A DNA stretch of 64,000 bases from Marsupella aquatica (Eukaryota > Plantae > Marchantiophyta), in the NCBI GenBank assembly GCA_973895155.1, contig OZ316895.1, positions 11,603,858-11,667,857 of the forward strand. Direction: 5' to 3'. Of the stretch, positions 24,258 through 64,000 are shown piece by piece. Numbering within the stretch: position 1 is the stretch's first letter; the number at the start of each line of letters is the position of its first letter. The notes below the pieces were generated by a model that saw only the letters and a program-made list of their open reading frames with translations, did not search any database and was not told the origin of the DNA. The position numbers and the translations under genes are program-made.

Positions 24258-24570
24258 TGAGTGAGGGCAAGATTTCGAGTGAGGGCAAGATGTCGAAGTG
24301 AGAGCAAGATTTCGAGTGAGGGCAAGATGTCAAGGTGAGGGCAAGATGTCGAGGTGAGTGCAAGATTTGGAGGTGAGGGCAAGATGTTGAGTTGAGGGCA
24401 AGATTTGTAAGTGAGGGCAAGATGTTGAGGTGAGTGCAAGATTTGGAGGTGAGAGCAAGATATCGAAGTGAGGGCAAGATGTCAAAATGAGAGCAGGATG
24501 TCGAGGTGAGGGCAAGATGTTGAGATGAGAGCAAGTTAGATGTTCAGGTGAGGGTAAGATTTTGAGGCGA
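24258..24570. repeat. Minisatellite (18-19 bp GAGGGCAAGATGTCGAGGT-like unit, ~16 copies) in the Helitron 3' region
   Basis: GAG(G/A/T)GCAAGAT recurs with 18-19 bp periodicity. Confidence 0.92.
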
Positions 24571-24659
24571 GGCAAACATGGTTGTGCATTGCAAACATAT
24601 AATTCAGGCAAAAAGTCAAAGAGATTAATACAAAAGTGATACAATATTTATTCAAGTGT

Positions 24660-32182: not shown

Positions 32183-32211
32183 CCATTATAAAGTTAATAT
32201 CCATGATTCGG

Positions 32212-39817
<7,606 letters not shown>

Positions 39818-42800
39818 TGCCACTACTCTCTGGTAGAGAAGCAGCAGCACCAAATTAAACTCGTGAATCTGTCCACAATCTGCGACCGTCACAAATTAAA
39901 TGTAGGAGAGATGCACATAGTAAGCTTATGTATCATCATACAGGCAATTAGGATACTGCACAGATCCATGCATATGATATTCTTTATGGAGTTGTGAACG
40001 AGTACGAGATCTGCCTTGATATCCAGCTCATTGGCTGGATCTAAATGACTACCCAGACGATCTTCGGCCAGGGTAGACAGCATAAATCCTGGACTTTCGA
40101 CTTTCTTCAATGAGGTACCCATCGGAATTCCGGAGCACAGCAGTTGTGAGATCTCCGTGACAGTGTACTTCGCATTCACGGCTTCATCTCTAAACGAAAT
40201 GCATACATGGGATATAAGCATCGATCATTCAATTTATTCTATATGATATTGTCGCCTTGCTAGCTTCGAGTGTCCTTCAAGTCCCAGTAAAATGAAATGA
40301 GGATCTCTACGCATACAATCTCTAGTGGGAGGAACTTGGAGATCATCACAGATGGCGATTCAATCGGCTGCGACCTACTTGCATTTCCTGTGCGGTGCAG
40401 TGCAGTGCAGTACAGATATCCTACCGATGTGCTCTTTCGATAGACGCTGGTCCACTTCACGGCTTGCACACGGTTCGTCAATTGCATTGACTAACTGGCC
40501 AACCAAGGAATTTATTCGTCCACGCCCACTACCTGATACCTGCTGATTGTGGTCCAACAAAGCGTGGGATGGGCTTCGTCAGTGTACAATGGATCAGCTG
40601 AAGTGAATGCTCCGCCTAGAAGTGCACGTAATTCTACAATTGCAAGGAAAGCGTAGGGGTCATACTTAGGGTGGCTTTACAATAACTTGGGGCAATGCTC
40701 TTTTCCTAGAGATACAATCCTATCATTCATATGTGGGAACACGCCACACTTCATTTTATATGAAGCTGGGACACAATCAAGCAAAACCACCAATTTACTC
40801 ATCTGTGAGTGGGTCCCTTTTGATGTGTGCTGGCTTTTCCGTCAAAAAGTTAGACCTCTTCTCGAGGTAGTTAAAAAACTGGACAAAAGGGCTACTTGAT
40901 TTTAGGGAATTGCATTTATTGTTTCGAGACCTGATACTATTTGGGTGAGGCGTTTTAACTTTGGTGTAAGGAAATGAGCAGAAGTGATCATCAGCTTTAC
41001 TTTGGATGGAGGAGCGATGGAGGAGCAGAAGTGAACATCAGCTTTACTTTGGATGGAGGAGCAGAAGCACTGAACTGTCCCCACCATCTTGTAAAGCCTG
41101 CCAACTGCCTTAGTTGGAGATGGTTCTGATTGGAGGCTTTAGGCAAAGGTTCCATGCAGAATGGGCAGTGCCAACCAGTGCGGACCCCACTCCGGCCCCC
41201 AGCTCCCCCAAATTTGGAGGTAGTTGGACTAGTCAGGCCACAGTCGCAGGGGGTGACTGTGGCCGGCCCCTGCCTCCACCCTTGTGCCCCAGTCTCCGAT
41301 ACCCGGCCCAGGCCTAGCCTGCGCCCAACTCCATCCGGGCAATACCAGCCCGACTCGACCCAGGCTCCCACCAGCCCGGCTCCGCGAGCCCAATGTTCAA
41401 GTGAGCATCCACAAGCCCAGCAGGAGGCCGTGGCGCGCAACGCCATAGCTCTAGCTCTCATGAAGCTCAAACTTTTTTTTCATGTGATGTGTAGCATGAG
41501 CTGAAAAGGGGTCAATAACCATAGCTTGTTGGCATCTGCTTGTACCTGATACTTCACGGCTGCAGAACTCCCCTCTTGATCAGTGACAAAACTGATTTGC
41601 TTCTCAGTCAATCTGGATTTCTCACGGTGTCAGACCCGATAAATCAATCCAACTGTATGGTATTTTGAAGAAAGTCACTACACACTTGTGCCTTGCTGCA
41701 CCAGAGACGACTCTAGACCTTCCACATGGGCTGCCTAAAATTTGGCTAGCATCTTCACAGGAAATTTTAGCTTTCATTCCAAGTTTCAAGTGGCTTGGTT
41801 ATGGGACATTGGTGAGTCTCACTTCAGGTGTGTAAAGTGATTGTTCCTTCATTTGAGATTTTGAATACCATATATTCATGCATGGGGTGAATATTTGAAA
41901 ACCGTGTAATGCAGGCTCATCGCTCCCGCAGTTTGCGAAATGTGTTAAGAAAGCACTATGACAGCAGTCTGAAATTTCAGCAATTGCTTGCAATTAATTG
42001 ATCTATGTGCATTAATTTTTCAGTTCCCTTAAGTGGTGGACCTTGCCACCCAACGCACCAATCCTAGCACCCTCGCCTAAGTGCCCCTTGGTGCCTGAAC
42101 GCTTACACGGAACTCCTTGAGCAAGCAACTTGGTACCTCTCCTCCAGCGACAACTCCCATACAAAGTCGCACTTGCTCCCTAACTCAACGTTCCTCACTG
42201 TTAGCACAAGCAACCAATTCAAACACCTATGTCAGTAAGTAACCCCGTTGGATCTAGGAACTCCAAGACTAATATCTCTACTCAAGTTCAACAGACATTG
42301 GTAAGTAGGTCAGTGAACAAAACCTCCCGGGCCCGCATGGCCTTGCCATAAGCCAAAGCCAGAGCCAACACCCATTGTTTGTCCATAACAGCCCCTCTTC
42401 AGATGTCACCCAAGCTTCCCCACTTCCTAAGTATTTGTCCCTTGCTGATTGCCCTACCCCCAGGACTTGCTTATGGCCCAAATAGCTAGCTTGTCCCTAT
42501 GCTTGTCCTAAGCTTGTCGAGAAACTTGTCCTAACCTGACTCTAACAACCAACTCCAAGATTCCAACTCCAATGGTAGTCTAGGGGCCAAGTGCACTTGG
42601 AACTCAACCTCCATGACTACTCTACTTTGTCTCCCCAACAAACGCAAGCTCCCATGGGAAACTGAACGCGATCTGGCTGCTGTTTCGGCAGGATTTGGCA
42701 AGCGGGCAAGATAGCCCCCGCAAACCCCAAGAATACATGACACCCCCAAATCCAGCTGAGCTCAGGAGGATGTAATCCTTCTCAAGAGTTTTCCAACGCA

Positions 42801-45326
42801 TCCAAGAAGTCCTCCAATGAACTTCGTGTTGAGAAGTTATCATTGTTTATGTTTCATATTTTCTCTTAGTGTCGCGACCACCTTGACTCACGACTTGGGC
42901 TCACCCTTGGCCCCCAGGGAGACACCACTCCTCTCATATATGCTTCTGGAGACCTGTCACCCCCGGACCGGCTTTGGTCCCCTATATTTGGCCCTCAATC
43001 TGGACTCCAACCCGCATGCATGGGCACACAGCTAACTTGTTATGCCCATAACTTTCTAGCTAGACGTCCATAAGCGTAGTGTCTTAGCCCATTGTGATCA
43101 GGTCGATCCACTGCCAATGCCTAGGCCCTTAGAACCCTCATCAATTTGGGGTTCCAGACGGTCGCACCAGAGCCGCGTTGTATCTCTTGCATCAAACGTC
43201 CTTTGCGCATGAAGTAAACTTCATTAGCCTTGGGCCCAAGAGGAGCTCCCACTCAAGCCCTCAGAAATCAAAGTTTGACTTGGGGTTCAGACGGTCCACC
43301 TTGAGCCCGACCCTTCCCATGGCCGGACCAGCTCCCCAACCAGCTCCAAGCTAGTCTAAGTTAGTGTGTGTCACCAGCTTAGTGCCTTGCCCCTTGCTAG
43401 TGCAACCCCTCGTTGCCCACTAGTCTCCCCATACTTAGTCCCCTCTAGATGGCCGTTGCGGAGGCCTTGACCATAGAGGAGCTCGGCGTCGCAGTCAACG
43501 ACACCGGAGCTAAGTGTTAAGGTAGTCGAGTTCTACATTTTGCACCCCCGTTTAAAAATGGTCATGTCTGTTTGATCCAAAACGTTCCAATATGCCTAGA
43601 TCATTTTGGGTCTTAAAAATATTGTAAGGTAACAAATGGTTTGCCCATAAGGCTGATGCAAACCAAGTTGGTGTGCTCAATCCAAACTTAGGAATTTCTA
43701 ACCAGTCTCACTTATCAAAGTTGGACGCCAGTCTGGGCGAGTAAGCTAACTCCAAACTCATCAGACCCATTGTTCACTCCTCAAGGTACCAGTGCCCTTT
43801 CGATCCTCATTAGATCGAACAAACCTTTAACTTCCACTTGCAAAAAGCAAATCGGCCGCCCAACAACCTCTAGCGCCCACGCAATCCAACTTTATCATTA
43901 AGAGGCCAAGAGGAGTGAAACTAGGATACAACTAACCGGGCAACTAACAAAGGTAGCCACAGCTGCCTGTACCAGGTCACAACAACAATAAGCCGCTTTG
44001 CTTATGATAGCTATCAAGGATCTCTGGTGTATTACCCAAAACTTTCTTTCAGTTCCCAATTCAAGTACTTTTGGCTTGGTCATACCAAACCCACTTTACT
44101 AAATACTCCAAAATCTGTGTGGATGGACTGATACTTTGTCCATAAAACTCCCATGGAGAAGCCAAACTTGGATGGATTGGACTACTACAAAGAGATATGC
44201 TTGAATGTTGTTCTTGACACTTCTCTCCATATTTAACCCCTCTCAGGTCATCATTTCTCTCCAAAAAGAATCTTGTCTATGATTTCATGATCACTTGTGT
44301 CCAAAAGATATCATGGCACTTACCATAGGAGTCTTGATTGCAACCTTCCCTTTATTTGGGGGTTTTATTCTTTTATTATCCTTTTCCCTTCAAATAGTAC
44401 TCTATCTATTGTTTTAGAGTTCAATGAAAAAGTCAAAGACCCGGGATCAAAAAGTAAGGTACATCAGGTGTTGAGCACCTTATCTGGCCTTTATGGTCAA
44501 TGAAACTATGTGCAGACTAAGCACTTCACATTTTACTCATAGCCCCTCAAGTAGTTTCTTCAATATATTATGACAAAATGCAAAATGAATTCAATTTTCT
44601 TCAAGAATATTATTTATAATGGACTGCAAAATGTAATCTTTTCAAGGCACATATATTTGAAGTATTTGGTAAAATGTATTACCCCATGTTGCATTTGAGT
44701 TGCAACTTTGTTGGTTGCACATGTGTTGTGAGTTTGGGAGGGTGACCTGGCATAGCAGGTCACCTGGTAGGGGTGACCTCTTCACCCAGGTTACCATGCC
44801 TTTGTGCCATGGGGGTATACCTTGGAGAATGAGGGATTAGCTCCTCATTCTTCCAAGTTGAGCCTCCCGGCACTAGTAGAGCTCATGTGAGTGTGGCTAT
44901 GGTGAGAGAGAGAGAGAGAGTGTATGCCGGTTGGCATGTAGAGCGACATTGGCAGGGTTCTGCTATGTGTATAGACTTGGAGTCCCGCATGGCTAGCGGG
45001 TGAGTTTGGCTCGACTTAGTGATACCTTGCAGCGGGGTCCCGTTTCGCAAGAGATTGTTATGGATTTTGACGTACATGTGTTGTGTGTCGTGTGATTATT
45101 TGTTTTCTTGTTTACATGGTGTGCCGCGATGTGAGTTGTGTATGGATGTGTGTCCGCACGACAAATGAGCTAACTATGACCAAGCTTGGATGGACTTACT
45201 GATACGTAAAGCTCGGATAGACAACGTATCAGTCCATCCAGGCTTTAAGCTTTAACTATATAGAACTTGCATTGAAAAGATTGGGAGAGTATAGCATCAA
45301 CAAAATAAATAACTATGTGTATTTGT

Positions 45327-46451: not shown

Positions 46452-49400
46452 TTACAATATTTGTAAATAATTACAATGCCTTGAAAAACTATTGGAGTCT
46501 AATACTTTGGTAAAAGCATCCGTTGGATTAAGCTTTCCATCAATCTTGACAAGCTCAAATTCATCATCCGATAATGCCTGTCGGATGAAATGATAGTGGA
46601 CATCAATGTGCTTTACCCTGCCATCCATCACCAGATTCTTGGCAGTGTAAATTGCACTTTGACTGTCACAATGAAGATATACACACTCCTGTGATAAACC
46701 CATTTCCGTGACAAGCTTTTTCAACCAAATGGTCTCTGATGCTGCTTCTGCTGCTGCTACATACTCGGCATCCATAGTAGACTTCGCAACACACTTTTGG
46801 AGAGTAGACTTCCAACTAATGCATCCACCAGCAAGTGTAAATACATATCCAGTTGTCGATCTCCTCTTATCCAGATCACCTGCGTAGTCTGCATCCACAT
46901 AACTTTGAAGCACTTTCATATTGTTTGAACTTGCATCAAACAATAAACCCTTCTTAGTGGAACCTCTGATGTAGCGCAAAATCCATTTCACTGCTTCCCA
47001 ATGAACTTTTCTTGGATTTGCCATGTATCTGCTTACCTTGCTAACGGCATAAGCTATGTCTGGTCAGGTGCATATCATGAGATACATTAAACTACCCACA
47101 GCATTTTCATAAGGAACTTTGGACATCAAACTTTTTTCTGTCGCATCCGATGGACAGAATGCTGCAAAAATATTAAAATGCCTTGCCAAAGGAACACTCA
47201 CAGCCTTAGCACCTGCCATGTTGAATTTTGAGAGTACCTTCTCTGCATATCTTTTTTGCGTCAGCCAAAGTTTGGCTTTGTTAACATCCCTGACAATCTC
47301 CATGCCTAGGATCCTCTTGGCTGTGCCCAAATCCTTCATCTTAAACTCAGAACTGAGTTGGGCTTTAAGCTTATCAACTTCGCCTCTATCCTGTGCTGCA
47401 ATGAGCATGTCATCCACATAAAGTACAAGGATGACAAGCTTAAAACCTGTGTTGTTCACACGCCTTATGTAAACACATGGATCGTACACGCTTCGCACAA
47501 ATCCAAGCGATTTCAAAAATTCATCAAAACGCTTGTTCCACTGCCTTGGGCTTTGCTTTAATCCATACAAGGATTTTAGCAACCTGCATACCAAATTTTC
47601 CTTGCCCTTTTGCACAAAACCCTCTGGTTGCCTCATGTAAATCACCTCATCCAACGATCCATATAAGAATGCCGTGACAACATCCATTTGATCTAAAACC
47701 AGATCAAATAAAACTACAAGAGCACATAGCAAACGTATTGTTGAATACTTTGCTACAGGTGAAAAAACCTCATTGTAGTCTATACCTTTTTGTTGAGTAA
47801 AACCCTTGGCTACCAACCGAGCCTTAAATATCTTCTCAGCATCCTCCGTGGGTCCATCTTTCTTCCTATACACCCACTTGCTATCAACAGTCTGCTTGTC
47901 ACTAGGTAGACTTGTGAGTTCCCAAGTCTTGTTATCATGAAGTGATTTTATTTCCATGCGCATCGCCGCCTGCCACTGTTGCTTCTCCATAGAAGCTAGG
48001 ACCTCTCGAAATGAGGATGGATCTCCATCTTTTGTCACCAATGCATCAATAGATTCTTCATCCAAATCCACTTGATCAGAAGGAAGCCAAGTACCATACC
48101 TTTCCCGGGCTTGACGTTTGCGAGTTCCTCTTCGCACTGAAGACTCTGGCTGATCTGATTGTAGTGCGCTTTGCCTTATAGTAGTGTCAACATATTCTTC
48201 ATTTGACACATCCTCTCCCCTTAAATCCTCTAGAGGAGGAGATTGCTCGTTGTTAGTAGTAGGGAATTGACCTATCTCCCCCTCCTTCAATGATTTGTCT
48301 TCATTGAAGGATATATCCCGACTAACAAGTAACTTGCAATCAACTGGATCCCACAATCGATATCCTTTAACGTCACGCTGATAACCAAGAAAAATGCATT
48401 TCTGGGCTCTAGGATCTAGCTTAGTCCTATTGTTGCTAGGAACATGTGCATATGCTTCACAGCCAAAAACCTTAAGCTTTGAATAATCAGCAGGTCGATT
48501 GTGCCATAGCTCAAAGGGGGTTTTGTAAGTAATTGCCTGACTAGGAGAGAGATTTACTAGATAAGCAGCTATGTTGACAGCTTATGCCCAAAAGATTTGT
48601 GGCAATTTAGAGTGGCTCAACATGCTCCTTGCTCGCTCCAACAATGTGCGGTTGAGTCGCTCAGCAACACCATTTTGCTCAGGAGTGTACACAGTTGTGA
48701 GATGGTGAGTAATTCCCTTATTTGCACAATACGTGTTGAACTCGCCAGAGGTGTATTCACCACCATTATCTGATCGTAGATATCTCACATTCTTTGCAGT
48801 CTGTGTCTCAACTTGAGTTACCCATTGTTTGAAGATGGAAAGCACTTCAAACTTATGGGCAATGAAATAAATCCAAACAAACCTTGAGTAATCATCGATA
48901 AACGATACATAGTATTGTTTGCCTGAATGTGAGGAAACCGGAGCAAGACCCCACACATCGGAATGAATATACTCAAGTATAACTTTAGAATGATGAATGG
49001 CAGTCGGAAATGGAGTTCTTGTTTTCTTGCCAACAATGCAATGATCACAAAAACTCAACTTGCATGCTTGCAATCCTGGTAGGAGATGTCGCTTGTGTAG
49101 GATTTCCAAACTTTTTTCACTCATGTGACCAAGCCGAGCATGCCATAAATTGATTTTCTCCTCCTGAGATGTGACCAAATTGACTTCGGCAAGAAGTGTG
49201 GTGCCTTTCAAGACATAGATGTTTCTTTTCCTCTTGCCAATAAGAACTTCAGTTGATCCATGCGTGACTGTTAACACCCCATCAGTTGCATTCCATTGAT
49301 AACCCTTCGCATCCAAGTAGCCAAGAGAAATCAAATTCTTATATACACATTTCTGGAATGTGTCTGACATTTGATAGAGTACAGTACTTGCCACCGGATA

Positions 49401-49926
49401 GTTGAATCTTTACGGATCCAATCCCTAAAACTTTGCAAGAATGATTATTTTCCATCAAAACAGATCCGTTGATAGGAGTGTAGGATGAGAAAAGTTCACG
49501 CATATAGCACATGTGATACGAGCAAGCGGAATCCAAGATCCATTGACAATCCTCAACTTGGGAAGTGGTACACAATGCAAATCCTTCACTATCCTCTTCT
49601 CGAACAACTACTTGGGCTGAAGAACCGGTAACTTCCTTGAATGTGTCTTTGACGTGACAATCCTTCTTCATGTGGCCCACTTTGTCACACTTCCAACACT
49701 TTATCTCACGAGTAGACTTGGATGGTGATTTGGATCGAGATCTAGATCTGGATCTAAACCTCCTCCTACCAAAAGATCGGTCGTGGAACCTTCCTCGCTC
49801 CATGGGAAGTGGGTTAAACCTTTTGTTTTCATGAGATGGCTCCCTTGATTTGCCTCTTTCTACCAACAATGCTGTTGATGATGAGGTTGAGGTAGGATGA
49901 GCTGAAGAAACCAGCTTAGACTGCAT
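46452..49926 (-). pseudogene. Copia gag-pol polyprotein with a frameshift and two in-frame stops
   Basis: CWKCDKVGHMKKDC; WILDSACSYHM (protease); LWHARLGH, YLRSDNGGEY, PEQNGVAERLN (integrase); QMDVVTAFL, SLYGLKQSPRQW, LYVDDML (RT); YVDADYAG, CDSQSAI, KHIDVHYHF (RNase H). Frameshift near 49340; stops at 48582 and 47064. Confidence 0.95.
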
Positions 49927-52900
49927 GCACTAGAAGAAACCGAGCCATTCTGAGACCCAACCTTACATGACTTGTGTGAGACCTTTGAAAATAAGTGACT
50001 CCAAGGTTTAGGGTGTCATCTTTGTTACATCTTCTTGACTCACTTTTGGTGAAGTTCTGGGAAGTCATGTATTTAACTATTGGGAAAGTTGCTTCTGTAA
50101 CTGAGTTAAGACAAGTATATTGAAGTTATATAAGTGACCATGACTTACATGATTTCCTTGCCCAATACATATGATTTTGGATCCATCATATTAATCACAT
50201 TATGTCATGCAATTATATATAGTTACCTCCCTTTGCTTTAACCATCACTGAGTTGCTCTTTATTGTTCCCCTATAAGAAAGTATACATGACATTTTTACC
50301 CTAATTGAAGTTTAGGTAAGTAGGGCAAATTTGTGATTCTAGCTAGACAAGAACCAACCAAATTTAAGTTAACATTCATGTACACGGCCGCAACTGAGTT
50401 CAAAAAGGTGTGAAAATTTGTGCCATGCCCCCAAAAATAATGATGCACCCTAAACCCTAATACTCTACATACATAGTTACCTTAAAAAAGTCACCACAAC
50501 CAATTAGTGGTACTTGTCACATACTGCTCACACACATATTAAAACTCACTTCATCCACTAACTCATTTTAAAAATTTGCTCTGCATATATACCCCATAAT
50601 TAGCCAATATCAAATGGAACCCCCTTCATATGGGAATATTGAAGGGCCCAATTTAGGACCTCTTTTTCCTTAAGTGCACAATGCAATGCCGTTGCATCAA
50701 TTTCTCTATCGGAAGCCCTCTTCCAATGAACCATGTTGCGCAATTGCAAGTTGATACAACTGGCAATAGCTTTTGCCCTAAACTTTTGACTGCCAAAAGC
50801 TTTTGTGGAGGGACTTGGAGAAAGAGAGAGTGCGCCCGCAAAGTGAGAGTCTTGTTGTTTCATGAGTGGGAAAGTTTTCACATCTTGTCAAAGCAGTCGT
50901 CTAGTGTGCGCTTGCTTGGGTGAATCCTATCGCGCAACTTGCTATCGAGTTGCATCCCTTGCACACAGAGAGGTGAAGTGTTGTTGTTTGGCAAGCGGGA
51001 AGGTGCCACTCTCACATTATGAATTCCATCCTAGGTTTACCCGAGTGAATCCTATTGACCTACGACCTTCAAAGAAGTGTAGTGACAACTTTTGGTGTGC
51101 TCGCTTGCTCACTGTGGCCTATTCACGAGGAGTGGTCTTGTGCGGATTGGTGAGGTGGAGGTGGAGCAGTACTGTGGACAGGGGGCTCTAAAGGTTTATA
51201 AGGTGCATGCGGTGGGGGTCATCCAGGACATCATCATCGAACAAAGGGACGACGACGATTGTGAGTATGAGTTTGCATTGTTCTCTACTGGGTTCCGAAT
51301 TGAGTTTTGAGCTGTGGTGGCTTAACAATGGTTGCGGGTGGGACCTCCCAGGGGCAAGGGGACGGCGCCGAACGTTCCTAGGAGGATGCAAAATAGACTT
51401 GTGCTACATTAGGATCCACATCTGTGTCTCTGCCTTGCCTTATTGATGGGAATCTACAGTGCATTTGGATTGGGAAGGTGAGAGCTGTCTATAGAATGCG
51501 TCGAAGCTGATTTTTGTTCAGATTTGGTCTTATGGAGAAGTTGATTCTTCTCTGCATAATGCTGCCTTGCTGAGCTGCATTGGGCTATGATGCGGGAGGT
51601 ATTCATCAAACGGCAAGCTTTTGGCTGCAGCTACCAAGTGTAAGTTTAGGGAGTTGAGAGCGGAAGCTGCCAATTTGGAGTTGCGAGTGTTCAAATTTGA
51701 GTGAGTTGGGGTAGTGAACGTTGAGCATCAACCTGCAGGGAGGTGCGACAGAAGTCTACTTCTGTGGCAGAGTGAGCTGAGCAAGTGCAAACTACGGGAG
51801 TGGAGCATCGTGGCTGCAACATTGACCGGGACTTTTTTTGCGTTGGGCACTGTGAGTAAGGCAGTCTACGGAGGCGCGAAAGAGTCGCGAGGAGTCGAGT
51901 TCAGCTACGGCAGTATTCACTTCAGTTGTCTCAATGTGGTTGGCGTGAGCTGCAGGTGAGCTTAGCTGTGTGCACATTTCATGTAAGTCAGGTGGTCGGT
52001 GTTTTAGGCATTGCGGAACTTGATTGACCACCCCATGGCTAAGGTTTAAGGTGCGGACTACAACAAATATGTGTTGTTGCTGAAAGTGTTGGTGGTGAGC
52101 GACAACTGGTATTGTTTCAGCTAAAGGGAGCACATTGGAGCTTGTGTATCCATGACCTGCGACCGATTGCGGCTGCCTGCTGTTACAATTGCCGAATCAA
52201 TCATGCACCCAATCTTGCGGGCAGACACAACTTTGCGGGAGTGTTGAAGGTTTAGGGTGAGCAACAGCGGAGAGCTCATTGCTTGGTGGCAGGGTTGAAG
52301 GTGGATGATCGGGCTGCAAGGCCAACCAGGGACTTGTTTTGCATTGAGCGATTGCTGCGGATTGCTACGCAGCTTCAGTTAGGGCGGCTTGGTGCTACAT
52401 CGGCACAGGTAAGGCTGCAATCCCCTATCGACGCGGACTCACCTCGTGACTACAAGTATAGTTGTCTAGGTGATGTATGCATTGCGTGTTTAGGGTCTAG
52501 GTGACATCGCTGCTAAGCAAAATTTGTGAGCTGCCTAGGTCCATTGCCGAATGTTGCTTCCTTTAAATTACCTGGTGCCTGCTGTTACAATCGCCTGCTC
52601 AATCATGCACCCAATCGCCTGGAGCTCATTTGCCTGGAGCTTCATCCGTCAGATTCAAACTGTTATTGCTGCTCTGCCCTTTTGCCATGGGTTGCCGGCC
52701 TACCGGATGCTATCAACAGATTAAGAACAAGTCATATCCTAAGTCCCGGTGTTGCAGTGATGTCCCCGACCCTAAGATGCTTTCCGAACTCATCTTTCTT
52801 GTTTCCTGTTGCTGCTGATGTATGTATGTTCTCCCCTATTTTTGCTTACAGATTGGTCTCTCCACACTTCTTGCTTGACATGATTGTTTTGCTCCTCCCT

Positions 52901-52982
52901 GTATCAGAACATGCCTTGTGCCCGGCGGTGGGGTGGGGGGGTGAACAGACGACCTTAAGGTTCACTACATTTCTAGGAACTG

Positions 52983-53136
52983 TGCATCTTTCAGCTGATT
53001 TTAGCCGCAAGTTCCCTTGCTTTCCCCTGTTTTTGCTAAGATCCCTCCCACTAATCACATGCATCTTTCAGCTGATTTTAGCTGCAAGTTCCCTTGCTTT
53101 CCCCTGCTTTTGCTAAGATCCCTCCCCACTAATGAC
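52983..53136. repeat. Tandem duplication, 77-bp unit x2
   Basis: TGCATCTTTCAGCTGATTTTAGC...CCCTCCCACTAAT at 52983 and 53060. Confidence 0.9.
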
Positions 53137-54333
53137 ATGCATCCTTTACTTTTCTCGGTGGCCCGTGCGCCTGCCTTCCTACTTTCGTTCTTATGGACTC
53201 TCCTTAGGTTTTCATTCACCTGGTTTTGGACTTTTTGCTCCGGTGGAATCTGTCTTGACAACTTGTGTTTGTTCTAATTGTTAATATCTCAAGAGGGTCG
53301 TCAACTAAGCTGAAAGGAGTCAAAGCTAACTACAAGCTAGCAAAATAATACAGAGAATGCTCCCAAGTCGAGTCAGGAGGAAGTTACTAAAACTAGACCT
53401 TCACAACTCTCGAAACTGGAAAGTGAAATTCAGCGTGAGACACGTAGCTGAAGGCCACAAGGATAACTATATGGCCACGCTGTCCCCCATTCAAGTCCAA
53501 AGTCCTCTTCAGATTGTCTGAACTCCTATTGAATGTATTGAATAATTATTTCATCACAGAAATTTTCAGAACAAACACGGAAGCACCAGGGGGCTGAGGA
53601 TTAGGTATTGAGGCTGAAGACATTGAGGTCATAAACTAGGTGTGGTTCGGGTGACAATGTTAGCAACTGATGCTTCTTCAGGGGAACTTCCCATGTGCAG
53701 TTTATCCACACATGATTGACTTTGGTTCTTGCTGTTTTTCTTTTGGTGTACTCTTGAGTTTGGTGTCACTCTATCCTTTCCTGTAGCCTCGAAATAGGAA
53801 CACACCTGCTTAGTGGTCCCCAATCGCCCAATGATTTATAATGACTGTGTCTAGGTGATGTATGCATTGCGTGTTCATTCCAGAAGAATGAATATGTACA
53901 CTTTGCACAAACCTGGACAGATTTTGAATGTTATTTATCTGAGTTTCTGTTTGTGAGCTCTGACTTGGAGCCTTAACATTTGTGTTTCTGTGGGGCTGAG
54001 CAGAGTTTGTTCCGTCTAGAAGCTGCTGTACTGAAGTGATCAGCCTCCAGCTTGGAGGTGAATCTTCAATTTTTTGTGGATCCGAGTGACTTCTGTCCAG
54101 CTGAGTTTTGCTTTGTCGGGACGATTGTGTTTGGCTAAGATGCTAGATTGTGGCTTGTCTTCTTGCTTCTAGCTTGTGTATTTTCAATTAATAGAAGTTG
54201 GGAACGAAGTGATAATTGAATTTCCTTATATTAAGCATCTTCACCTAGAAACTCAATACATAAACTCCAGGATTCCCTCGGGACATAAAATGAGCCAAAT
54301 TGTCTCAAAATTGGGAACCTGCACCCGCACTAC

Positions 54334-54676
54334 TCAAACAATTGTGTTGGGCTTGGTGGCCTTGTAAGTCTTCTTTAGCTTTCACAATGGAGGTTGAATC
54401 TTGCAGTACGTCAAGGGGAACTTGATCTTTGAATCATGGAACTGCTTGGTACTTTCTCGCTTGCACAGAGAGACAGGGACTGTCGTAGTCTTCATGATCT
54501 GGATGCAAGGGAACCGAACTCTATGACAAGAAGCCATCTCATCATACATCTGCTCTGCAGCTCCGTTTCTTGTGGTATCACAATATTCCTTGTACATGTT
54601 GTGATAACCTGTACGACTCTGATACGTGGACCCAGATACCGAAGTTCTTAATTGTGGTGGGCTTCTTTTTGAAGAT
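54334..54676 (-). pseudogene. RPL18A: 60S ribosomal protein L18a (eL20) 3' exon fragment
   Basis: [15 protein letters not shown] [frameshift] [18 protein letters not shown]...RVRFPCIQI...[18 protein letters not shown]...PPL*KLKKTYKATKPN. It begins at a CAG acceptor; the 5' exons were not seen. Confidence 0.92.
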
Positions 54677-55678
54677 CTGGTAGACACATTATTCAGCATT
54701 TGCTAACTTCAAAACTAGAAGGGTAACACATTAAACAACAGAGAAACTCACAACATCCTCCTTTGGTCCTTCAGAGTCTGTACTTTGATTCTGAAGTTTG
54801 ACTGAGTTTTTGTTTACTAAAAGAATGTGACTATGTAAGAGTTCCGTTTGGCAGTGGATTGGTTGAAGCACTTCATGCTAGTGTGTTGTCCACAGCTCTT
54901 CAACCAGCTTTCGTCTTCCTTGTCTTTCACCACTTACGATGACATCAATTCAGCTAAGACCATAGAAGGTTCCAAAGCATCTAACTTGTAAAATCGCATT
55001 CTGTTACATCAAGGACTAAGGTGTTGGGTGCCAAAGGAGACAGCACAACAAACACGCTGAAAAGACTTCAGGACTGGGTTCAACAAGGTAGTGAAGGTGC
55101 TTAGAGCCATAGTAAGTATGCATTCTGTATCTTTCTCTGTTGATGTGAGCTTGTGCATAATGGGAGTTGTAGTTGGCAAGAGTTCCAAATATGAATAGAT
55201 CCAGAAGTATGTGATCATGTACTTGCTCTATAAAGTTCTGAAGATATAAGCATTTTCTGTTAGACCAGGCAACTTGGGAGTTGGTAAGTGTCACTTGCAT
55301 CTGAGGGGCGGGGCATCAGTGGAGGTTCACTTGCACAACACGACAACCAGTGAATTTTCTCTCTGCTGCAACCTGCAAGGTGAGACTTTCGGTCTTTCTG
55401 GATGAAAAAACAGGAGTTTAATATGATTGATATACATGTCCGTCGAGAATATGGGTTTATCACCAAGCTCTTTGTCTTAGGAAACTCATAAACTCAGAAT
55501 CAAATATGTACTATGCACGTTTCATGCTATGTGTATACTATGACCTGTAGTTGGAACCAAGACAATGAGTGGGAACTAATTAGTTTAGGTGGTTGCTGTT
55601 GGCGAGGCAAGTCGACCTCCTGCTCACCTTGCTCATCAAAGGACGTGAACAGAGGACATCACAACGAAAGCAACACTT

Positions 55679-56128
55679 ATGGTGAGGACCCGCAACGCTG
55701 AACATGTGCGACTTGCACGCAAGGCAGAGATGTTGCGCCTTGAGTATGTCAGACTTGGGATCCTTCCAGCCCAGTCTGCATGGTACTTTGAGTACCCTGT
55801 TGTTTCCAGGAACAACTACAGCCGGCCTCTACCTGCTTCAGTACCCTTCCCGACATCCTTGGTATTTGTGTCTCTTGTACATGACCAGCCACAAATTAGG
55901 TGCCAAGGGTGTGTACACAGTTGCCAATATGACTGTCCTGCCTGTAGGGCTTCTGGCCCAAAATTGGATGACCGTTCTCTTGGATGCCGATTTTTGCACA
56001 GAGCACAATGTATCATCTGGAACCACTCGCCATCCTGCAGTGTGCCTGGTGATGTCACTTGTCCTGCCCTCCCAGACCCCACCACCGGTGACTTTGGTGT
56101 CTACACATGTTTGGATCACATGCTCTAG
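55679..56128 (+). CDS. Cys/His-rich hypothetical protein (149 aa), possible zinc finger
   Basis: ATG-initiated open frame MVRTR... with CQGC, CPAC, CRFLHRAQC and CLDH. Same strand as the neighbouring cargo ORFs. No family recognised. Confidence 0.4.
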   Translation: MVRTRNAEHVRLARKAEMLRLEYVRLGILPAQSAWYFEYPVVSRNNYSRPLPASVPFPTSLVFVSLVHDQPQIRCQGCVHSCQYDCPACRASGPKLDDRSLGCRFLHRAQCIIWNHSPSCSVPGDVTCPALPDPTTGDFGVYTCLDHML

Positions 56129-56743
56129 AGGACCACTTGTCACACCGCATGCACAGACCAGATACCATTGACCTATAGCTTAACACTCTGACTTCAACAC
56201 AGAGGATATTTACTTAAAATTTTGATGTATGAGCAATTTTGGGTCCAGGGTTTAGGGTCAACAGTACATAACTTATATCCTATTATGCCTGCACTAAGCA
56301 AAATATCCTAATTTAAGAGGCTAGCAAACTCGCATAAAAGTCTCTATTGAAAGACTGCTTTCATGACTGCTTTAACCTGGTGAACATTGCAACGTTGAAT
56401 GAATTAATGGGCCATGTGATAATATGCAAAATGATTTATGCCTCACTTATTTGTCTCAGCCACTATCATAACCTATTTAGGATGTATAAATTTCAACCCT
56501 TATGACACTGCTTCATACCAATCCTCTTCGAAGAATGCCTGTTTTACATGTCACGACTATTGTATGTGATTCAAATGCATGAAATGTTGTTGCAGATCTC
56601 CTTTGGTGAATCATAGCCACAATTAAAATTGAGGTGTTGGTGGAGAAATTGTATTAGGGGATCAGTTTTGTGTGTGGGCTCAACATACCAAAAGTATGTG
56701 TGCTCTGCATCCTTGTGTGGCCATTCCAATTCATTGCAGTAGC

Positions 56744-56887
56744 AAATGCCTTTGTACCTTAAATGCTAAATATATTTTACTTTCTGTGCAGTCTGCTAAA
56801 TTGTAGAGTCTATCTAAATGCCTTTGTACCTTAAATGCTAAATATATTTTACTTTCTGTGCAGTCTGCTAAATTGTAGAGTCTATCT
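56744..56887. repeat. Perfect tandem duplication, 72-bp unit x2
   Basis: AAATGCCTTTGTACC...GTAGAGTCTATCT at 56744 and 56816. Confidence 0.92.
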
Positions 56888-56898
56888 CATGCGCAGGC

Positions 56899-57579
56899 AT
56901 GGCACGGCCTAAAATTCAAGCCAAAAAGCGTGTGACAGAGGTGAGAAACACAGGTGTACTTGGGGCAGATGCTACTAACTTCTCTGCAAGTCAGATTTTC
57001 CAGAAGGCAGCTCATTGTTGTGCCATTTGTGACGATGGTGGGGGCCTGGTCATTTGTGAGGGCCCTTGCATGAGGCATTTCCACCTCAACCCGGAGTCTG
57101 ACCTTGCTGCAGAAAACAACTGTCCAGGGGTGGGCCTCCCGTCAACACACCAGGGAGACTGGATGTGCACTGATTGTTTGGAGAAGCAGGCTAAGTGTGC
57201 ACAGTGTGGGAAGTTGGGGTCCTATGAGGGCTCTGTTGATGCTGCAGCAAATGTTAGGAAATGTCCAGACCGTTTTTGTGTGAGATTTTTCTGTTTTGAG
57301 TGTTTGCCTGCTCATGCCACAGCTTGCCCACTTCATAGGTGCAAGGCATGTGGTGAGCATGATGATGACTACTGGACTGACATAGTCCACTGTGCTAGGT
57401 GTCCCACTATGTGGCACTATCATTGCCTGAAAGATCATCAAGCAGAGGGTTATGCTTGTGACAGAGAAATCTATGATCACTCTGCACATGGTGTTGATCG
57501 ATGGATATTTTATTGTCATCGCCATGCCATTGATCCTACCTCGCGCACTCCTGTGAGAGATCACATATCTTGGCTGTGA
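56899..57579 (+). CDS. Stand-alone EDM2-like composite PHD finger protein (226 aa)
   Basis: CAICDDGGGLVICEGPCMRHFH...C..C...CAQCGKLGS...CPLHRCKAC...CARCPTMWHYHCL...IFYCHRHAIDPTSRTPVRDHI. The pattern, including the terminal TPVRDH, matches my recollection of the plant EDM2 PHD region. The ORF is uninterrupted. Confidence 0.85.
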   Translation: MARPKIQAKKRVTEVRNTGVLGADATNFSASQIFQKAAHCCAICDDGGGLVICEGPCMRHFHLNPESDLAAENNCPGVGLPSTHQGDWMCTDCLEKQAKCAQCGKLGSYEGSVDAAANVRKCPDRFCVRFFCFECLPAHATACPLHRCKACGEHDDDYWTDIVHCARCPTMWHYHCLKDHQAEGYACDREIYDHSAHGVDRWIFYCHRHAIDPTSRTPVRDHISWL

Positions 57580-58171
57580 AGCTGAACATTGTACATGCAC
57601 AGTGCACCTGATGTGGATGTACTATTTTTTGAGATTGCAGAGATTCCAATTTTGAAAAGGAGTTGGGTAGGCGAGTTTATATAGGCAGCACTTATCTTGT
57701 GCTCTGGCGTCAGTGGCTGGGTACATGCCTATACAAACTTATCCTTACAAGCCTTCTTGGAAGTATTTAGGCTGAGTGGTCATTTTCATAAACACTTTCA
57801 TCACACTGCTAAATTAAAACAGGACTTCTAAGTTGTAAGCGTATAAATTATCAGGCATGCAATTAATCAAATTGCCCTATAAGTTTGTCATTGAATGTAT
57901 CCTCCTTTACAACAAAATATGTATGTGCCATGACAAGTTGGTTGCACTTCATTTCACCACGGATATGGATTTTGTAGTATATATTCAAACAATGTCCTGC
58001 ATCCGTGCAGGTGCCTAGTACGTATTGTTCACATATCCCTTGTACCTATCAAAATCGGACCTGAGCACCAGTGGGCCAGATCAACTCAAAAAGCAGGAAT
58101 TTTGTTGTCCTTGTATTGTCAGGTGAACCCATTCTTCCAAAATTCACTGTCATCACGTAGGGTGTGTGTAC

Positions 58172-59044
58172 ATGGAGCCTGGTAAACGTAGAAAGTGTGA
58201 CCACCCAGCAGTGTTTACAGGGGTCAGAGCGATTTTGGTCCATGGCCAGCATGGGTTGACCAAAGTGCATTGGCCAACTGTACAGAAACGATTCTCTGAG
58301 CTCCATGGCACTGTAGTTCAGGACATCACTCCAGAGACTCCACATGTTGTTGCAGGGACATGGCTATCAGTGATAAAGAAGTGGTCATGGTCCTACATGA
58401 ATTCTGCAATTACTAAGCAAGGCCTAAAAGTAGTTGAGGCCTCTTGGATCACAGATTCCATAGCACATAAGATTGTACAGGATACTGAGCAATATGAGTT
58501 GTGGGAGGATGAAGAAGCTACTGCATCAGCTTGGGCTGAACAAGAAGTCTGGGAAGCAAAGGCACGGCTTGCTGATCTCCAATATGGACCTGTACTCAAC
58601 AAAGGACAGAGCTCTACAAGGCTGAAGAGTATGTTGGCTGAGGAGACGAAGCAACCAACCCCCATTCTGAAAGGGCTGAGCCTGGTATTTGTGGAGGCGG
58701 GAATTGGAGAGGTTAAGTGCAAAGTGTACAAGTCCACAGTGCTTGACCTAGGTGGGACAGTGGAGGAGAATATAACAGAGGACACCACTCATGTCATTAC
58801 TAAGTCATATCCCAAAGCCTGCCGCAAGTTTGGGAAGGGAGACATTCGCTTTTATGTCATGTCCCATAATGTGTTTGTGGTTTCATATGCTTGGCTTGTG
58901 GAATCAGTAGCAGCTAGGAAGCGTCAAAACCCAATGGACTATGATCTTTTTGAGGCCTGGCCACGGAAGGGTCAGGATCCTTACAGAGAGGACTATGAGA
59001 CAACAAGTGAGGAATGGGTCATTAGCGATTCTGAATCAGAGTGA
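58172..59044 (+). CDS. Tandem BRCT-domain protein (~290 aa), DNA polymerase lambda-type BRCTs
   Basis: Two repeats with BRCT hallmarks: VFTG..HGTVVQDITPETPHVV...VVEASWITDSI...YEL and ILKG..LGGTVEENITEDTTHVI...KFGK...SYAWLVESV...YDL. Basic N-terminus KRRK and acidic tail. First ATG at 58172. Confidence 0.8.
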   Translation: MEPGKRRKCDHPAVFTGVRAILVHGQHGLTKVHWPTVQKRFSELHGTVVQDITPETPHVVAGTWLSVIKKWSWSYMNSAITKQGLKVVEASWITDSIAHKIVQDTEQYELWEDEEATASAWAEQEVWEAKARLADLQYGPVLNKGQSSTRLKSMLAEETKQPTPILKGLSLVFVEAGIGEVKCKVYKSTVLDLGGTVEENITEDTTHVITKSYPKACRKFGKGDIRFYVMSHNVFVVSYAWLVESVAARKRQNPMDYDLFEAWPRKGQDPYREDYETTSEEWVISDSESE

Positions 59045-59618
59045 GGAGTAGTAGCATCAGTTTGGACACAAGTTTTTTTGTATAAATCAGATCATTGAAA
59101 TAAATGTGATCTTTGAACTAATGTACCTTGTTATGGTTGGTGGCAGTTGGGCTTATTTTACTGTTGGCGGATTGTTGTTTCCTGCTGCCTGGGGGTGTCA
59201 CTGTAAACGTACATGCAGAGGTGGTACATTTGAGGACAGCGGAGGAGGTGGTGACACCCTCCAACATTTAGGAATTTTGTGTCATTCACTTGACAATAGG
59301 TACACTACTTGCGAACCTGTTTTTTTCTTTTGGGGTGGTTTAGGGTTTGTGAGAATTTAGTACACGTTATGTTAACTCTTTTGGCAGATACAGTCAGGGA
59401 TATATGGAACACAAATACCACCATTAGGCATCCTTGTTCACTGCTGTCCATGACTGCAGAGCTCCCAGCCTGTTACAATGCACCCTAGTCACCACCCTCC
59501 CCAGACCCAGCCCAGGGCACAGGCACTGCCTTTGCATCATCCCACAAGGATATCACGCCATGATAATAAGCTTTGGCAGCGTGAAAGGTTATGAACCAGA
59601 CTTTCAGGAGCCAGTAGG

Positions 59619-62600
59619 ATGAGATGTCCTTGTGCAATCTGCCAAGGATCCCGTACCAGGGGTCTGAATGAGGTTTGGCGGCATATCGCGGTTCATGGAA
59701 GAGATCCACGACATCGAGTTTGGAATGATCCTGCAGAGGAAGATTCTTCCGACGAGGAGTGGAGGTTAGAATTTGATGCTGCCAATGCTGCAAGACGGGC
59801 AAGTGAGGTTCTGCCTGGTGCATTTGAAAATGTTGTAGCTGGTCTCTGTGGGTTGTCAGCTCTCCAACGGGATGGTGCTCAGGCAGCACCACGTGACGAA
59901 GGAATTCATGTGGAAGAGATGGTGAGAGACATCTTCCAAGACTTGGATGCATTTCATGATGGGCTGGACAATGAAGAGGATACGGCTGCAGATGCAAGTG
60001 TGCCCCCTGTCGAAGAGCCTCTTGATGAGTTTGAGATAGGGCAGGAAACCCTTGGGCATGATGGGATGTTTGGCTCTCCCCTGCAAATACAGGAAGGCAG
60101 GAAGTCTTTGTACCCCGGTAGCAAATGTTCTAAACTGGGATTTGTCATCATGTTCCTGAACATTTGCGGCAACCACAATGTCCCCAACGTTTTGGTTTCT
60201 GAGTTGTTGGCATTCTTGCGAACAACTGTGCTACCAGATGGTAATATTTTGCCCAAGAACATGTACGAGGCAAAAAGATGCATATCTAATCTTGGATTGA
60301 ACTATGATTCGATCCATGCTTGTCCTGATGGGCATGTTCTTTTCAGAAAGGAGTATAAAGAATCGTTGACATGCCCTAAGTGTGGGAAGCACAGGTATCG
60401 GAACTCAGGAAAGTCTATGGTTCCCGCCAAGGTACTTCGTCATTTTCCACTCATTCCCAGACTTCAGCGGATGTTCAGAAGCCGTGCCATCTCGGAGATG
60501 ATGACTTGGGCAACTGACAAGAAAAGTGATGATGGGCTACAACGACATGCTGCAGATTCAAGGCAATGGAAACTCATAGATGAGATGTATCCCGAATTTG
60601 CTGCTGAGCCAAGGAATGTCAGACTTGGGCTGTCATTGGATGGGGTAAACCCATTTGGAGACAAGAACAACAAATTTTCATGCTGGCCTGTAACTATTTT
60701 GAATTATAACCTTCCTCCTTGGATGACTACAAAGCGATTTTTTGTTTTGATGGTCCTACTGATACCAGGGCCAGACAGTGCTGTATCTGCCAACATAGAT
60801 GTGTTTCTGGCTCCCCTAGTGGAGGAATTGAGAAAGCTTTGGGAGGAAGGAGTTCTCACATATGATGTCCTACAGAGGCTTGGGAGGTTAAACCCATTCA
60901 TCCTTAGAGCCATTGTCATTCTGACTATAGCTGACTACCCAGCCCATGGGATGATATCAGGCCAAACAACAAAAGGATATTGTGCTTGTACTATCTGTGG
61001 GCGCAATGTCACCAGTGAGTACTCCAGAGCCCTGCAGAAAGTGATATACATGGGCCATCGTCGTTTTCTGAAGGCAGATCACCCTTACAGAGAAAGACAG
61101 GCACTGATTGCACACTTTGGCAATGAGATTGAGCAACGTGGACCCCCGGCACGAGTGACCAAAGAGGAGATCAGGCAGTGGGGAGCACTGAGGGATGACT
61201 ATATCAAACGAGGGGGCAGGGAAGATGGAGTGAGTGATCCAATAAAGCGATATGGTGTAAAAAGACTGAGCATATTGGACTTGGAGCTCAAGTACTGGAG
61301 GGTAAGCCTCTTGGAGTTGATGCTAATTGGGATACATGTTTTGGTTCAGAGCATGTGCATTCATTTGGAAGAGAGAGACTAAACTTGAGGCATTTCCTGA
61401 CGCTTTTGCATTGCAACGATGCAGGAGTTTGAGCCAAGCAAACATAACATTGATGTTATGCACATTGAAAAGAATATTTGTGAGAGTCTACTCAGATTCT
61501 TGTGTGGAGAGAAAGACACTGGTTCAGTGAGATTGGATCTTGAACAGAGGGGAATGAAACCCCATCTTTGGTTGAGGCCACATGCCCACAGAGCTGATGT
61601 GCTCTTGAAGTACCAAGCGCCCTATGTTCTGACAGACACAGAGTGGGAACTATTTGTGCAGAGGTTGAGTTCTTTGAAGGTTCCTTCAAACTATGGCAGT
61701 GCTTTCAAGAAGCATATCATGACTAGAAAGCTTGGTAGTATGAAAAGCCATGACTACCATATGTTGATGCAACAGGTGTTGCCTTTATGCCTGAGGGGCC
61801 TGTTGCAGAAGCCTGTTCGTACTGTGATCATGCGACTCAGTGATGTGTTTCGTCGTATTTGTGTGAAGGTTTGGGATGAAACACACTTCCCACAACTGAC
61901 AGAAGATGTCGCTCAGGTGCTGTGTGACCTGGAGATTTATTTTCCTCCCGCATTTTTTGATGTCATGACCCACCTACTTGTCCATGTTGTGGAAGAGCTA
62001 CACCAATTTGGGCCTGTGAGTGCTCGTTGGTTGTACCCTTTGGAACGGTACATGAAGCTACTCAAAGGTCACGTGAGAACATATTACAAACCTGAAGCAA
62101 GCATGGCTAAAGGTTACATCAAGGATGAGACTCTGGGATTTCTGACCGAATACATAGCACAATATGAGCATGTGAAGACCAGGGTGTGGAATTCTGATGA
62201 GGAGGAAGGGGTGATAGGTGAAGTACTGGAAGGGGCTGCAACCACAAAGAACCTGACCATATCTATGAGAGACTTGGCACATGACTTTGTATTGCACAAC
62301 ACTGTGGTGATGGAACCCTGGATACAGTGAGTGCATACATGTGCTATAATCCAGTTCATGAGCTTAAATGTTGTGTTCGTGTGGTTTTCTCCTTCAGCCT
62401 GTTTATGTTTACCCAAGCTAATGCTGTGTGGTTGTTCGTTCAGGGAGTATGAGTCATTGAAGGCGGCCCATCCCACTACAGGAACAACTTTTCCAGGTTT
62501 CATGGAGTGGATCAGAGTGGCAATTAGAGAGCATCACGAGACCCACCTAGACATGGATGCAGATGTTTACCTACTGTCTAATGCCCCTAGCCTGAAAGTG

Positions 62601-63209
62601 AAGACTTACAAACGGATGAGAGCATATGGGAATCACTTCCGAGTGAAGGATGGTGACAGTGCCTACAGGGTGACGAATGACTGCGGGCTCATCACTGTAT
62701 TTGAGCAACAGAGCCACAATCACGACAGGGCCTGGATGGAGATGGGATATGTGGGAGAATTAGTTGACATATGGGCTCTGGACTATGGGGCGGTGTCCAG
62801 TCCTGTGATTCTTATGAAAGGTTCATGGGTGCGGCAGGATTGGCTTGGTAACAGGGCTACCATGAAGAGAAACAACGACGGTTTCTTGTTGGCCAATTTC
62901 AGAGGGAAATTGCCCGAATGGTCTGAGCCATTTGTGTTTCCTAGTCAGGTGGAGCAAGCTTTCTTCCTGGATGTGGAAGACTCCCCAGGTTGGCGTGTAG
63001 TGTGTCATAAACAGGCCAGGCAACGCCGGATGGAAGGATCAAACCTTGAGTTTTATTTACACTCTCATAGTGCCTTTGATCGTCGGCGTTCAGACCAAGT
63101 GCCTGTAGTTCATGATAGCGGGGACTTCATTCCTGTGACAAGGGTAGATGCATTTGCTGAAGGAGGCGAATTCAAAGATGCAGATGCCAACAGTGTGCCT
63201 GTGCCATGA
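59619..63209 (+). CDS. CACTA/EnSpm transposase (TnpD/Tnp2-like; Transposase_21, DUF4218 and DUF4216-type regions), 3 exons, ~1116 aa
   Basis: Exons 59619-61301, 61425-62326, 62444-63209 (GT-AG, 3351 nt, in frame). Motifs RCPC..C, IHACPDGH, LRHFPLIPRLQRMF, RNVRLGLSLDGVNPF, NLPPW, ADYPA, IDVMHIEKN, MKSHDYH, FFDVMTHLLVH, WLYPLERYM, EPFVFPSQVEQAFF. Confidence 0.93.
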
Positions 63210-63365
63210 GTAATGTGAATTGTTTGCATAGACATTAGTGAGGGGAAGGATGTGTAATAAAGTAATTCTGAAGCAACACAGATGTATGGATGGATGCCTA
63301 GTGATTGTGGTTGCATTGTGTTATACGGGGTGACCATAGATGACATGTTTTTGTGGTCCAGTAGG

Positions 63366-63845
63366 ATGGAACAGAGTGACACAAAGATGTGTGAGTATGA
63401 AAGGAAAGCTATGGAACAACGAGCATACGTGAAAGCCAAAATCGCAGAACTGGATCTGGAAAAGGATGTGGCTGAATTGTAAGGGAACGATTCTCAACTA
63501 CACCCCTCCGCTGAGTTTGTGTGACATGAATAGTTCAATGTGGCACTGAAATTGTGACTGTATTCTCATATTGGAATGTCGCAGAGCCACAACATTTTCA
63601 AAGAAACAAAAGGAGTACGCAAGAAGGGTGACCAGCACTATCTCTGGGCCTGTGCGTCGGAGTGACAGGTTGAGCAAGAAGGTCGTACCTACAATGGCAG
63701 AATGTGGAGATGACATTGATGCTGCACAGGTGGGTGCAGACACTAGACAAGAAGATGCAGATGATGAGTATTTTCCAGAGGAAATGGATGAGGATGGGGG
63801 TTATGAAGATGAATACATTGCAGAGCAGCCCCAAAAGAAACATGT
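63366..63845 (+). CDS. Probable start of a second CACTA gene (fragmentary, continues beyond the window)
   Basis: MEQ...CEYERKAMEQRAYVKAKIAELDL, then PVRRSDRL and an acidic tract, separated by putative GT-AG introns. The exon model is not resolved. Confidence 0.4.
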
Positions 63846-64000
63846 AAGTAGTTTTCCCAACAAGGTTTTGAGTTAAAAACTCTTGTTTAGAGGTTTCATA
63901 TGTTCAGTACTACACATATGTACCTTGCTTAGTTCCTGACATTGTAGTTGGTGATGTGATGCAGCGTCCTGCCAGTTCTGTTTTGCCTTCGAAGCCTGTG

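Follow-up and report, generated by a model that had tools for sequence, protein, structure and literature searches.

The window, that is, the whole 64,000-nucleotide stretch of Marsupella aquatica DNA analyzed here, contains at positions 56,899 to 57,579 of the + strand an unbroken frame of 226 amino acids, which by translation runs from MARPKIQAKKR to TPVRDHISWL and a stop. The frame lies 7.0 kb inside the left end of a CACTA (En/Spm) element and 2.0 kb upstream of a CACTA transposase. The features of the locus are as follows.

46452 to 49927, - strand: remnant of a copia retrotransposon gag-pol, broken off where the left end of the CACTA element begins; it is the insertion site and lies outside the finding.
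49928 to 64000, + strand: CACTA (En/Spm) element of at least 14 kb, with its right end past the window, recognized by its left terminal inverted repeat, subterminal repeats, transposase and multi-copy contigs.
49928 to 49940, + strand: left terminal inverted repeat of the CACTAG type; a stop contributed by this repeat truncates the copia gag-pol frame at its upstream end.
49963 to 50293, both orientations: six 11-bp subterminal repeats.
56744 to 56887, + strand: two perfect tandem copies of a 72-bp unit, both containing a U-rich splice-acceptor-like site.
56899 to 57579, + strand: 226-aa ORF with an H3-like arm, a flexible linker and an EDM2-type three-finger cassette (frame, Pfam, AlphaFold and alignments).
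56902 to 56931, + strand: H3(1-10)-like arm, residues 2 to 11 of the ORF, identical to H3 at A1, R2, K4, A7 and K9.
57019 to 57573, + strand: three zinc fingers (24 ligands, residues 41 to 209) and the EDM2 end motif, to residue 225.
58172 to 59044, + strand: second cargo ORF with two BRCT repeats (Pfam BRCT, E=6e-12, two stretches).
59619 to 63209, + strand: CACTA transposase (Pfam Transposase_21, E=1.5e-70, with DUF4218 and DUF4216).

The terminal repeat at 49,928 agrees at 11 of 13 letters with a published CACTA terminal repeat (PMC8978399). Six subterminal repeats occur in the first 500 bp, all within 370 bp of the left end, where the remainder of the window would predict 0.16, although the motif was derived from this same region and one of the six is thus present by construction. 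The transposase frame is open for 1,116 codons once two GT-AG introns (61302-61424 and 62327-62443) are removed. Where a TnpA-like second ORF was sought, an acidic frame begins near 63.7 kb and runs off the end of the window, with no Pfam match. The BRCT ORF also gave distant BRCA1-BRCT matches (E of about 0.001).

We mapped contigs from 4 of 11 public runs onto positions 50,001 to 64,000. Because 600 to 9,622 contigs per run fitted, in several identity classes (99% to under 90%), the element shows the pattern of a dispersed repeat; at a single variant site there were up to 32 contigs. Summed depth in run X6, which is not a copy number, reached 2,236 over the PHD ORF, compared with 3 to 14 in the first 2.3 kb and 220 to 460 across the transposase. 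One X6 contig (depth 186) spans from the inside of the BRCT frame to 75 bases short of the transposase start, and an X5 contig spans from the 3' flank of the PHD ORF to the BRCT start; the PHD, BRCT and transposase frames most likely travel together. Deleted forms were also seen, one being an internal deletion in run X4 (joint 54,103 to 63,891, with a short side of just 25 letters) and others lacking the start of the ORF (joint 56232 to 56958). The observed/expected CpG ratio was 0.25 in the PHD ORF, 0.23 in the BRCT ORF and 0.24 to 0.41 in the transposase, against 0.78 to 0.81 in a duplicated host-gene region, so the CpG depletion of the ORF fits the transposase and not the duplicated host-gene region. 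The original prediction had placed the ORF inside a transposon, and the transposase 2.0 kb downstream, the left end 7.0 kb upstream and the multi-copy pattern bear this out.

We infer that the left end at 49,928 and the ORF belong to one element. Two nested elements are possible, because contig depth steps up from 52.3 kb and the 5' 2.3 kb lies far below the core. The CACTA-like words at 54,328 and 59,303 were dismissed as candidate ends of the element, since each is spanned by contigs or joints. In three of the four runs, positions 55605 to 56071 rank first or second in contig depth among the bins of the element, and Pfam gave no significant match for the two overlapping + frames (about 160 codons) of this interval.

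Elsewhere in the window, a glycosyl hydrolase family 1 gene is tandemly duplicated on the - strand (9077-16992 and 32210-40404, 87 to 97% alike), with a Helitron Rep/helicase region between the copies, at about 24.7 to 29.7 kb, and a 19-bp tandem array beside the helicase end (24278-24573). Dense nested direct and inverted repeats at 19022-20878 look foldback-like. A 24-bp inverted pair 1.07 kb apart (44120-45240), possibly a small non-autonomous element, encloses a second CACTAG-type word at 44,871.

The 24 Cys/His positions of the 226-aa ORF are spread over three fingers, and the NSD-type PHD models of Pfam match all three in order, every score being below the gathering cutoff. In pairwise comparisons that included the end motif, the ORF was 31% identical to the PHD block of Neltuma EDM2 and 29% identical to a Ceratopteris EDM2 homolog. 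An unfiltered HMMER search gave 249 proteins at E<=0.001, and the best 150 of these are described here: seven had E<=1e-30, each of them short (166 to 245 aa), and the others were mostly long proteins aligned near their residues 220 to 430. The names of 10 long matches were checked and comprised one ENHANCED DOWNY MILDEW 2, seven hypothetical, unnamed or PHD-labeled plant proteins, one transcript ORF and one nameless entry. Finger spacing, end motif and the 29 to 31% identity to EDM2 homologs support the EDM2 type of the cassette, as originally predicted, and the best long matches are EDM2s rather than unrelated PHDs. The two host EDM2s compared were those of Neltuma and Ceratopteris; at 29 to 31% identity to these two, the ORF is far from the near-identity expected of a recent neutral capture, and with its ligands conserved it is, judged from its sequence, no recently captured host EDM2 free of coding constraint.

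AlphaFold modeled the ORF with a mean pLDDT of 89.5 and a pTM of 0.84 from an 89-sequence alignment; an input of 6 sequences gave a pLDDT of 48.8, and the 89-sequence model was used. Its closest solved folds are PZP and NSD PHD-C5HCH tandems, with a middling best score for NSD3 PHD5-C5HCH (Z 5.5, rmsd 2.7 over 84 residues), and the structure comparison turned up no close solved structure for EDM2-type fingers. From the ESM Atlas only generic clusters were returned, NSD-type PHD (0.92) and BRCT (under 0.9).

Among the hits from three sequence searches, 28 short relatives of the ORF were picked by eye. The full-length members (n=14, including the query) measure 206 to 245 aa and are 29 to 91% identical (median, 43%), and in alignment A1 the C-terminal tails of six members coincide or differ by 8 residues at most. 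In a tree of 79 cassette rows, which left out eight fragments, one near-duplicate and five members found later, the 15 family rows form a single branch with 100/96 support, apart from all named liverwort, lycophyte, fern and flowering-plant homologs. This tree is unrooted and so points to no donor. At the 24 ligand positions, 13 full-length relatives share 98.7% identity with the query, versus 42.7% at the other cassette positions. This is the deep divergence with kept metal ligands that had been predicted; the purifying selection proposed at the same time is supported on the ligands, 98.7% of which are kept at a median identity of 43%, and we consider it highly probable that the ORF is under selection, whatever its role.

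The cassette itself has been altered in the family. In alignment A3, composed of 19 family rows and 70 others, position 132 is a Cys in 19/19 family rows and a His in 66/70 others, and the finger-2 spacer has 7 residues in 19/19 family rows versus 10 to 43 in 69/70 others. The eight positions before finger 1 contain zero acidic residues in the family versus a mean of 2.5 in the others. Since the acidic stretch is absent and finger 2 is rebuilt, the H3K9me2 reading of EDM2 cannot be assumed for the ORF, and its earlier description as a reader-only EDM2 does not hold as stated. A missing acidic stretch before a PHD may weaken the binding of an H3-like peptide, the arm of the ORF included.

All 12 members that were looked up have records solely from Logan, JGI or ENA contigs, none coming from an annotated genome. 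Transposon context was seen only for the element of this window, and we infer a transposon association for the relatives. In six of them (P0009, P0010, P0014, P0079, P0086 and P0116), similarity is lost midway as in broken copies; by eye, these resemble transposon copies, which are often broken. No longer fused forms were found among 340 candidates of a word-based search, which is weak evidence given that this search also missed EDM2s found by HMMER. The 11 loci of a metagenome scan are by translation grass-type EDM2-like sequences and unrelated PHDs, with no member of the short family and no match to the BRCT or transposase frames, and no family member was present among 42 candidates of a viral scan.

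We then consider how the protein might begin. Because the ATG is preceded by two strong acceptor-like sites, at 56,792 and 56,864, and the sequence CAG/GC stands two bases ahead of it, a 5' intron is likely, and the 72-bp duplication is likely the end of that intron. Initiation at the ORF's own Met is argued for by the recurrence of Met-Ala-Arg in members that are just 37% identical; a coding upstream exon joined to the PHD ORF is, from the sequence, also possible. Eight weak donor-like sites lie inside the ORF. Acceptor-like sites are found ahead of the PHD, BRCT and transposase frames alike, and since the site at 58,123, ahead of the BRCT ORF, has an in-frame stop after it, this ORF needs an ATG of its own. 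These observations fit a model in which each of the three frames would be a last exon in its own right, joined by splicing to one common leader. The ORF had been called intronless, which is right for the coding frame but probably not for the region upstream of it, and stand-alone, which is right for a free-standing frame in a transposon but is not in itself new, as short EDM2-like host genes exist in grasses. The dispersed-repeat pattern makes an exon of an ordinary host gene unlikely, even if an upstream coding exon is possible.

Without its initiator Met, the N-terminal arm reads ARPKIQAKKR, and the start of H3 is printed as ARTKQTARKS in PMC8166343. This likeness was first spotted by eye and tested afterwards. 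The mimic pattern Met-small-Arg-x-Lys, found in 48 of 20,996 human proteins (PMC8166343), occurs at residue 1 in 9/26 family arms and, in a tenth arm, from a second Met; the query fits it provided that the ATG at 56,899 is the start. Among the other hits, 3/156 start in the same way, all three being short grass-type EDM2-like proteins. In a second arm subtype, S-R-[PG]-K-x-x-A-[RK]-[RK], the motif stands some residues in from the start, and in the eight arms where it is internal there is no free amine.

Scored against 21 non-redundant family arms, H3(1-10) outperformed 99.98% of 50,000 shuffled versions of the same ten residues (z=5.3, a value resting on arms of shared ancestry, which are hence not independent). 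Each of the two subtypes passed the reordering test (z=4.4 for 11 arms and z=4.8 for 8 arms), and register 1 was the best of nine H3 registers for the family arms, while the arms of nine short host EDM2-like proteins did not match H3(1-10) (z=-1.2). Of 3,652 natural basic decamers, only 3 scored as high as H3(1-10), all overlapping within a single Marchantia protein, P0047. Taken singly, the query arm was not significant (p=0.055), p<0.05 was reached in 10/26 arms, and the R-x-K core was missing from 4/21 arms. At the level of the family, the match of the arm to histone H3 residues 1 to 10 in order is thus statistically supported, making the arm a statistically supported candidate for an H3-tail mimic. 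In the AlphaFold model, residues 1 to 10 are in part ordered (pLDDT of 67) and form strand bridges, and residues 13 to 22 fall below 50, a weak hint that the arm may fold back. The original prediction had overlooked the H3 likeness of this arm, together with the wider family, the adjoining BRCT gene and the short EDM2-like genes of rice and finger millet.

Some proteins outside the family show related starts. P0047, a short EDM2-like protein of Marchantia (280 aa), has an R-P-K-x-K-A-S-K stretch before its fingers, at residues about 20 to 30, and is the sole non-family protein whose match to the family arms equals that of H3. Short grass EDM2-like proteins (P0032, P0044, P0093 and P0190, as well as L004 679-1431 and L005 254-1006), which make up a branch of their own, also start with M-A-R-x-K; these starts could be a convergent K4-type mimic, and as a set their arms do not fit the H3(1-10) order.

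The ORF is a real accessory gene of a CACTA element; it is conserved and derives from EDM2 without being an EDM2. As to its role, we tentatively favor, with slightly less than even confidence, a chromatin factor that is encoded by the transposon, counters silencing and carries its own H3 pseudo-substrate. The gene would be expressed from the element, probably as a last exon of its own to which a shared upstream leader is spliced, and after removal of the initiator Met the protein would begin with a free Ala like H3. Folded back on finger 1, the arm would gate that finger; at the chromatin of the element, an exposed arm would compete for the H3K4/K9 writers and readers of the host. The cassette would guide the protein either to the tails of H3 or to partners from the EDM2 pathway, with the net result that the element could stay transcribable. 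Anti-silencing VANC is a transposon-encoded precedent (PMC10398659), and in BAZ2B a histone-mimicking linker damps the protein's own PHD (PMC5663869). What speaks against the counter-silencing factor is that the query arm alone reaches only p=0.055, that 10/26 arms pass singly and 4/21 lack the R-x-K core, that a basic nuclear-localization signal could look like the arm, and that the acidic stretch before finger 1 is absent from the family.

Few examples of transposons countering host silencing are known, such as VANC, and the family offers a small, foldable candidate, open to direct testing, whose design differs in that a host reader was co-opted and combined with a histone mimic. The family also suggests that accessory genes upstream of CACTA transposases can escape annotation, 0/12 looked-up members having a record from an annotated genome, and the well-predicted 190-residue cassette could be a compact model for EDM2-type fingers. 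A bolder version, which we regard as rather doubtful, is that an old plant CACTA lineage encodes a dedicated histone-mimic protein, in which a copy of H3(1-10) wired to a rebuilt EDM2 reader would plug its own finger and soak up H3K4/K9 writers and readers, and that the neighboring BRCT protein could engage DNA repair during transposition. If so, histone mimicry, known from viruses and cancer, would be used by a transposon as a chromatin counter-defense kit.

Other roles have to be weighed against the counter-silencing factor. The cassette might read a histone mark and steer insertion into heterochromatin by contacting either the transposase or the BRCT protein, like the chromodomains of some retrotransposons, with the arm just a gate. 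Such an integration-targeting adaptor, which we consider unlikely, would suit the position of the element in a copia remnant, the potential BRCT partner gene next door, and the fact that transposons often capture PHD/chromo readers and that chromodomain targeting is known (10.1101/2021.11.30.470311); yet a single insertion site says little, the ORF is not fused to the transposase, and the H3-like order at both the K4 and the K9 positions would be left unexplained. An equally unlikely account keeps a functional accessory protein but makes the arm a mere nuclear-localization signal and its H3 likeness a coincidence, the cassette being a dominant-negative or local recruiter of EDM2-AIPP1-ASI1 for full-length transcripts, as originally modeled. 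Indeed, the arm is basic, absent from some members and only a partial match (4 to 5 of 10 identities in the best arms), and EDM2 binds H3K9me2 and acts with ASI1 and AIPP1 on polyadenylation (PMC7529245). However, the composition-preserving tests favor H3 order and register, the basic arms of nine short host EDM2-like proteins do not fit H3(1-10) (z=-1.2), and the family has lost all other EDM2 domains and changed the cassette in its own way.

That the ORF is an old EDM2 fragment, captured and now hitchhiking with the element as neutral or decaying cargo, is very improbable: gene-fragment capture is known for CACTA elements (PMC8978399), several relatives look broken midway by eye, and deletion forms remove the ORF start (56232 to 56958), but ligands kept at 98.7% in proteins with a median identity of 43%, open frames of like length and derived features present family-wide (19/19) are not expected without selection. 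A host gene family, or an exon of a longer host or element protein, sitting in or domesticated from the element, is also very improbable in our view. The acceptor-like sites ahead of the ATG, the eight weak donor-like sites within the ORF and the short EDM2-like host genes of grasses would be accounted for in this way, but not the dispersed-repeat behavior (600 to 9,622 contigs per run), the Met start recurring in distant members or the lack of any looked-up member (0/12) from an annotated genome; that no longer protein scored in the word-based search is weak evidence in the same direction.

A literature search covering titles and abstract openings, with most subscription papers and Repbase outside its scope, yielded no description of a CACTA-borne EDM2-type PHD gene or of a transposon histone mimic; the main text of PMC8978399 mentions neither PHD nor BRCT, and PMC13317346 and PMC13547354 mention neither PHD nor histone. 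Histone mimics given as examples in PMC13165374 include viral and cancer proteins, and fungal DNA transposons are reported to carry TET/JBP genes (PMC12730594). With the PHD cassette of EDM2/ELP1, whose domains and partners are described in PMC7529245 and PMC3632883, the ORF shares the three-finger spacing, 23/24 ligand identities and the end motif. It differs in being transposon borne, in having a Cys for a His ligand and in occupying its own tree branch; it stops after the end motif and is without the RFD-like N-terminal domain that Pfam finds in the EDM2s P0034 and P0023 and without the acidic, PGR, methyltransferase-like ELP and proline-rich parts (described for EDM2 in PMC7529245). By its sequence, the 226-aa ORF is thus derived from EDM2 and not an EDM2 ortholog.

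The short grass EDM2-like genes (rice Os03g0266600 and Eleusine) are likewise short and mainly cassette, and three of them start with M-A-R-x-K, but they are nested among flowering-plant EDM2s and keep the His ligand and the longer finger-2 spacer. The PHD arrays of NSD1-3 resemble the ORF in their NSD-type PHD Pfam matches and in providing the nearest solved fold (NSD3 PHD5-C5HCH), whereas the ORF has no SET or PWWP domain and carries the EDM2 end motif. The H3 N-terminal mimicry proteins (H3TMs) share the start pattern Met-small-Arg-x-Lys (PMC8166343) and BAZ2B the combination of mimic and PHD in one chain (PMC5663869); both are host animal proteins, while the likeness of the transposon ORF extends to the K9 position. 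In the PHD/chromo-transposon fusions (10.1101/2021.11.30.470311), a transposon has also captured a chromatin reader, but there the reader is fused to transposon enzymes in annotated gene models, whereas the ORF is free-standing, bears the H3-like arm and adjoins the BRCT ORF. VANC of the VANDAL elements (PMC10398659) is likewise a separate accessory gene of a plant DNA transposon, with the counter-silencing role that we propose for the ORF; VANC, however, binds specific noncoding DNA repeats of its own elements, whereas the ORF derives from a chromatin reader of the host and has a predicted role.
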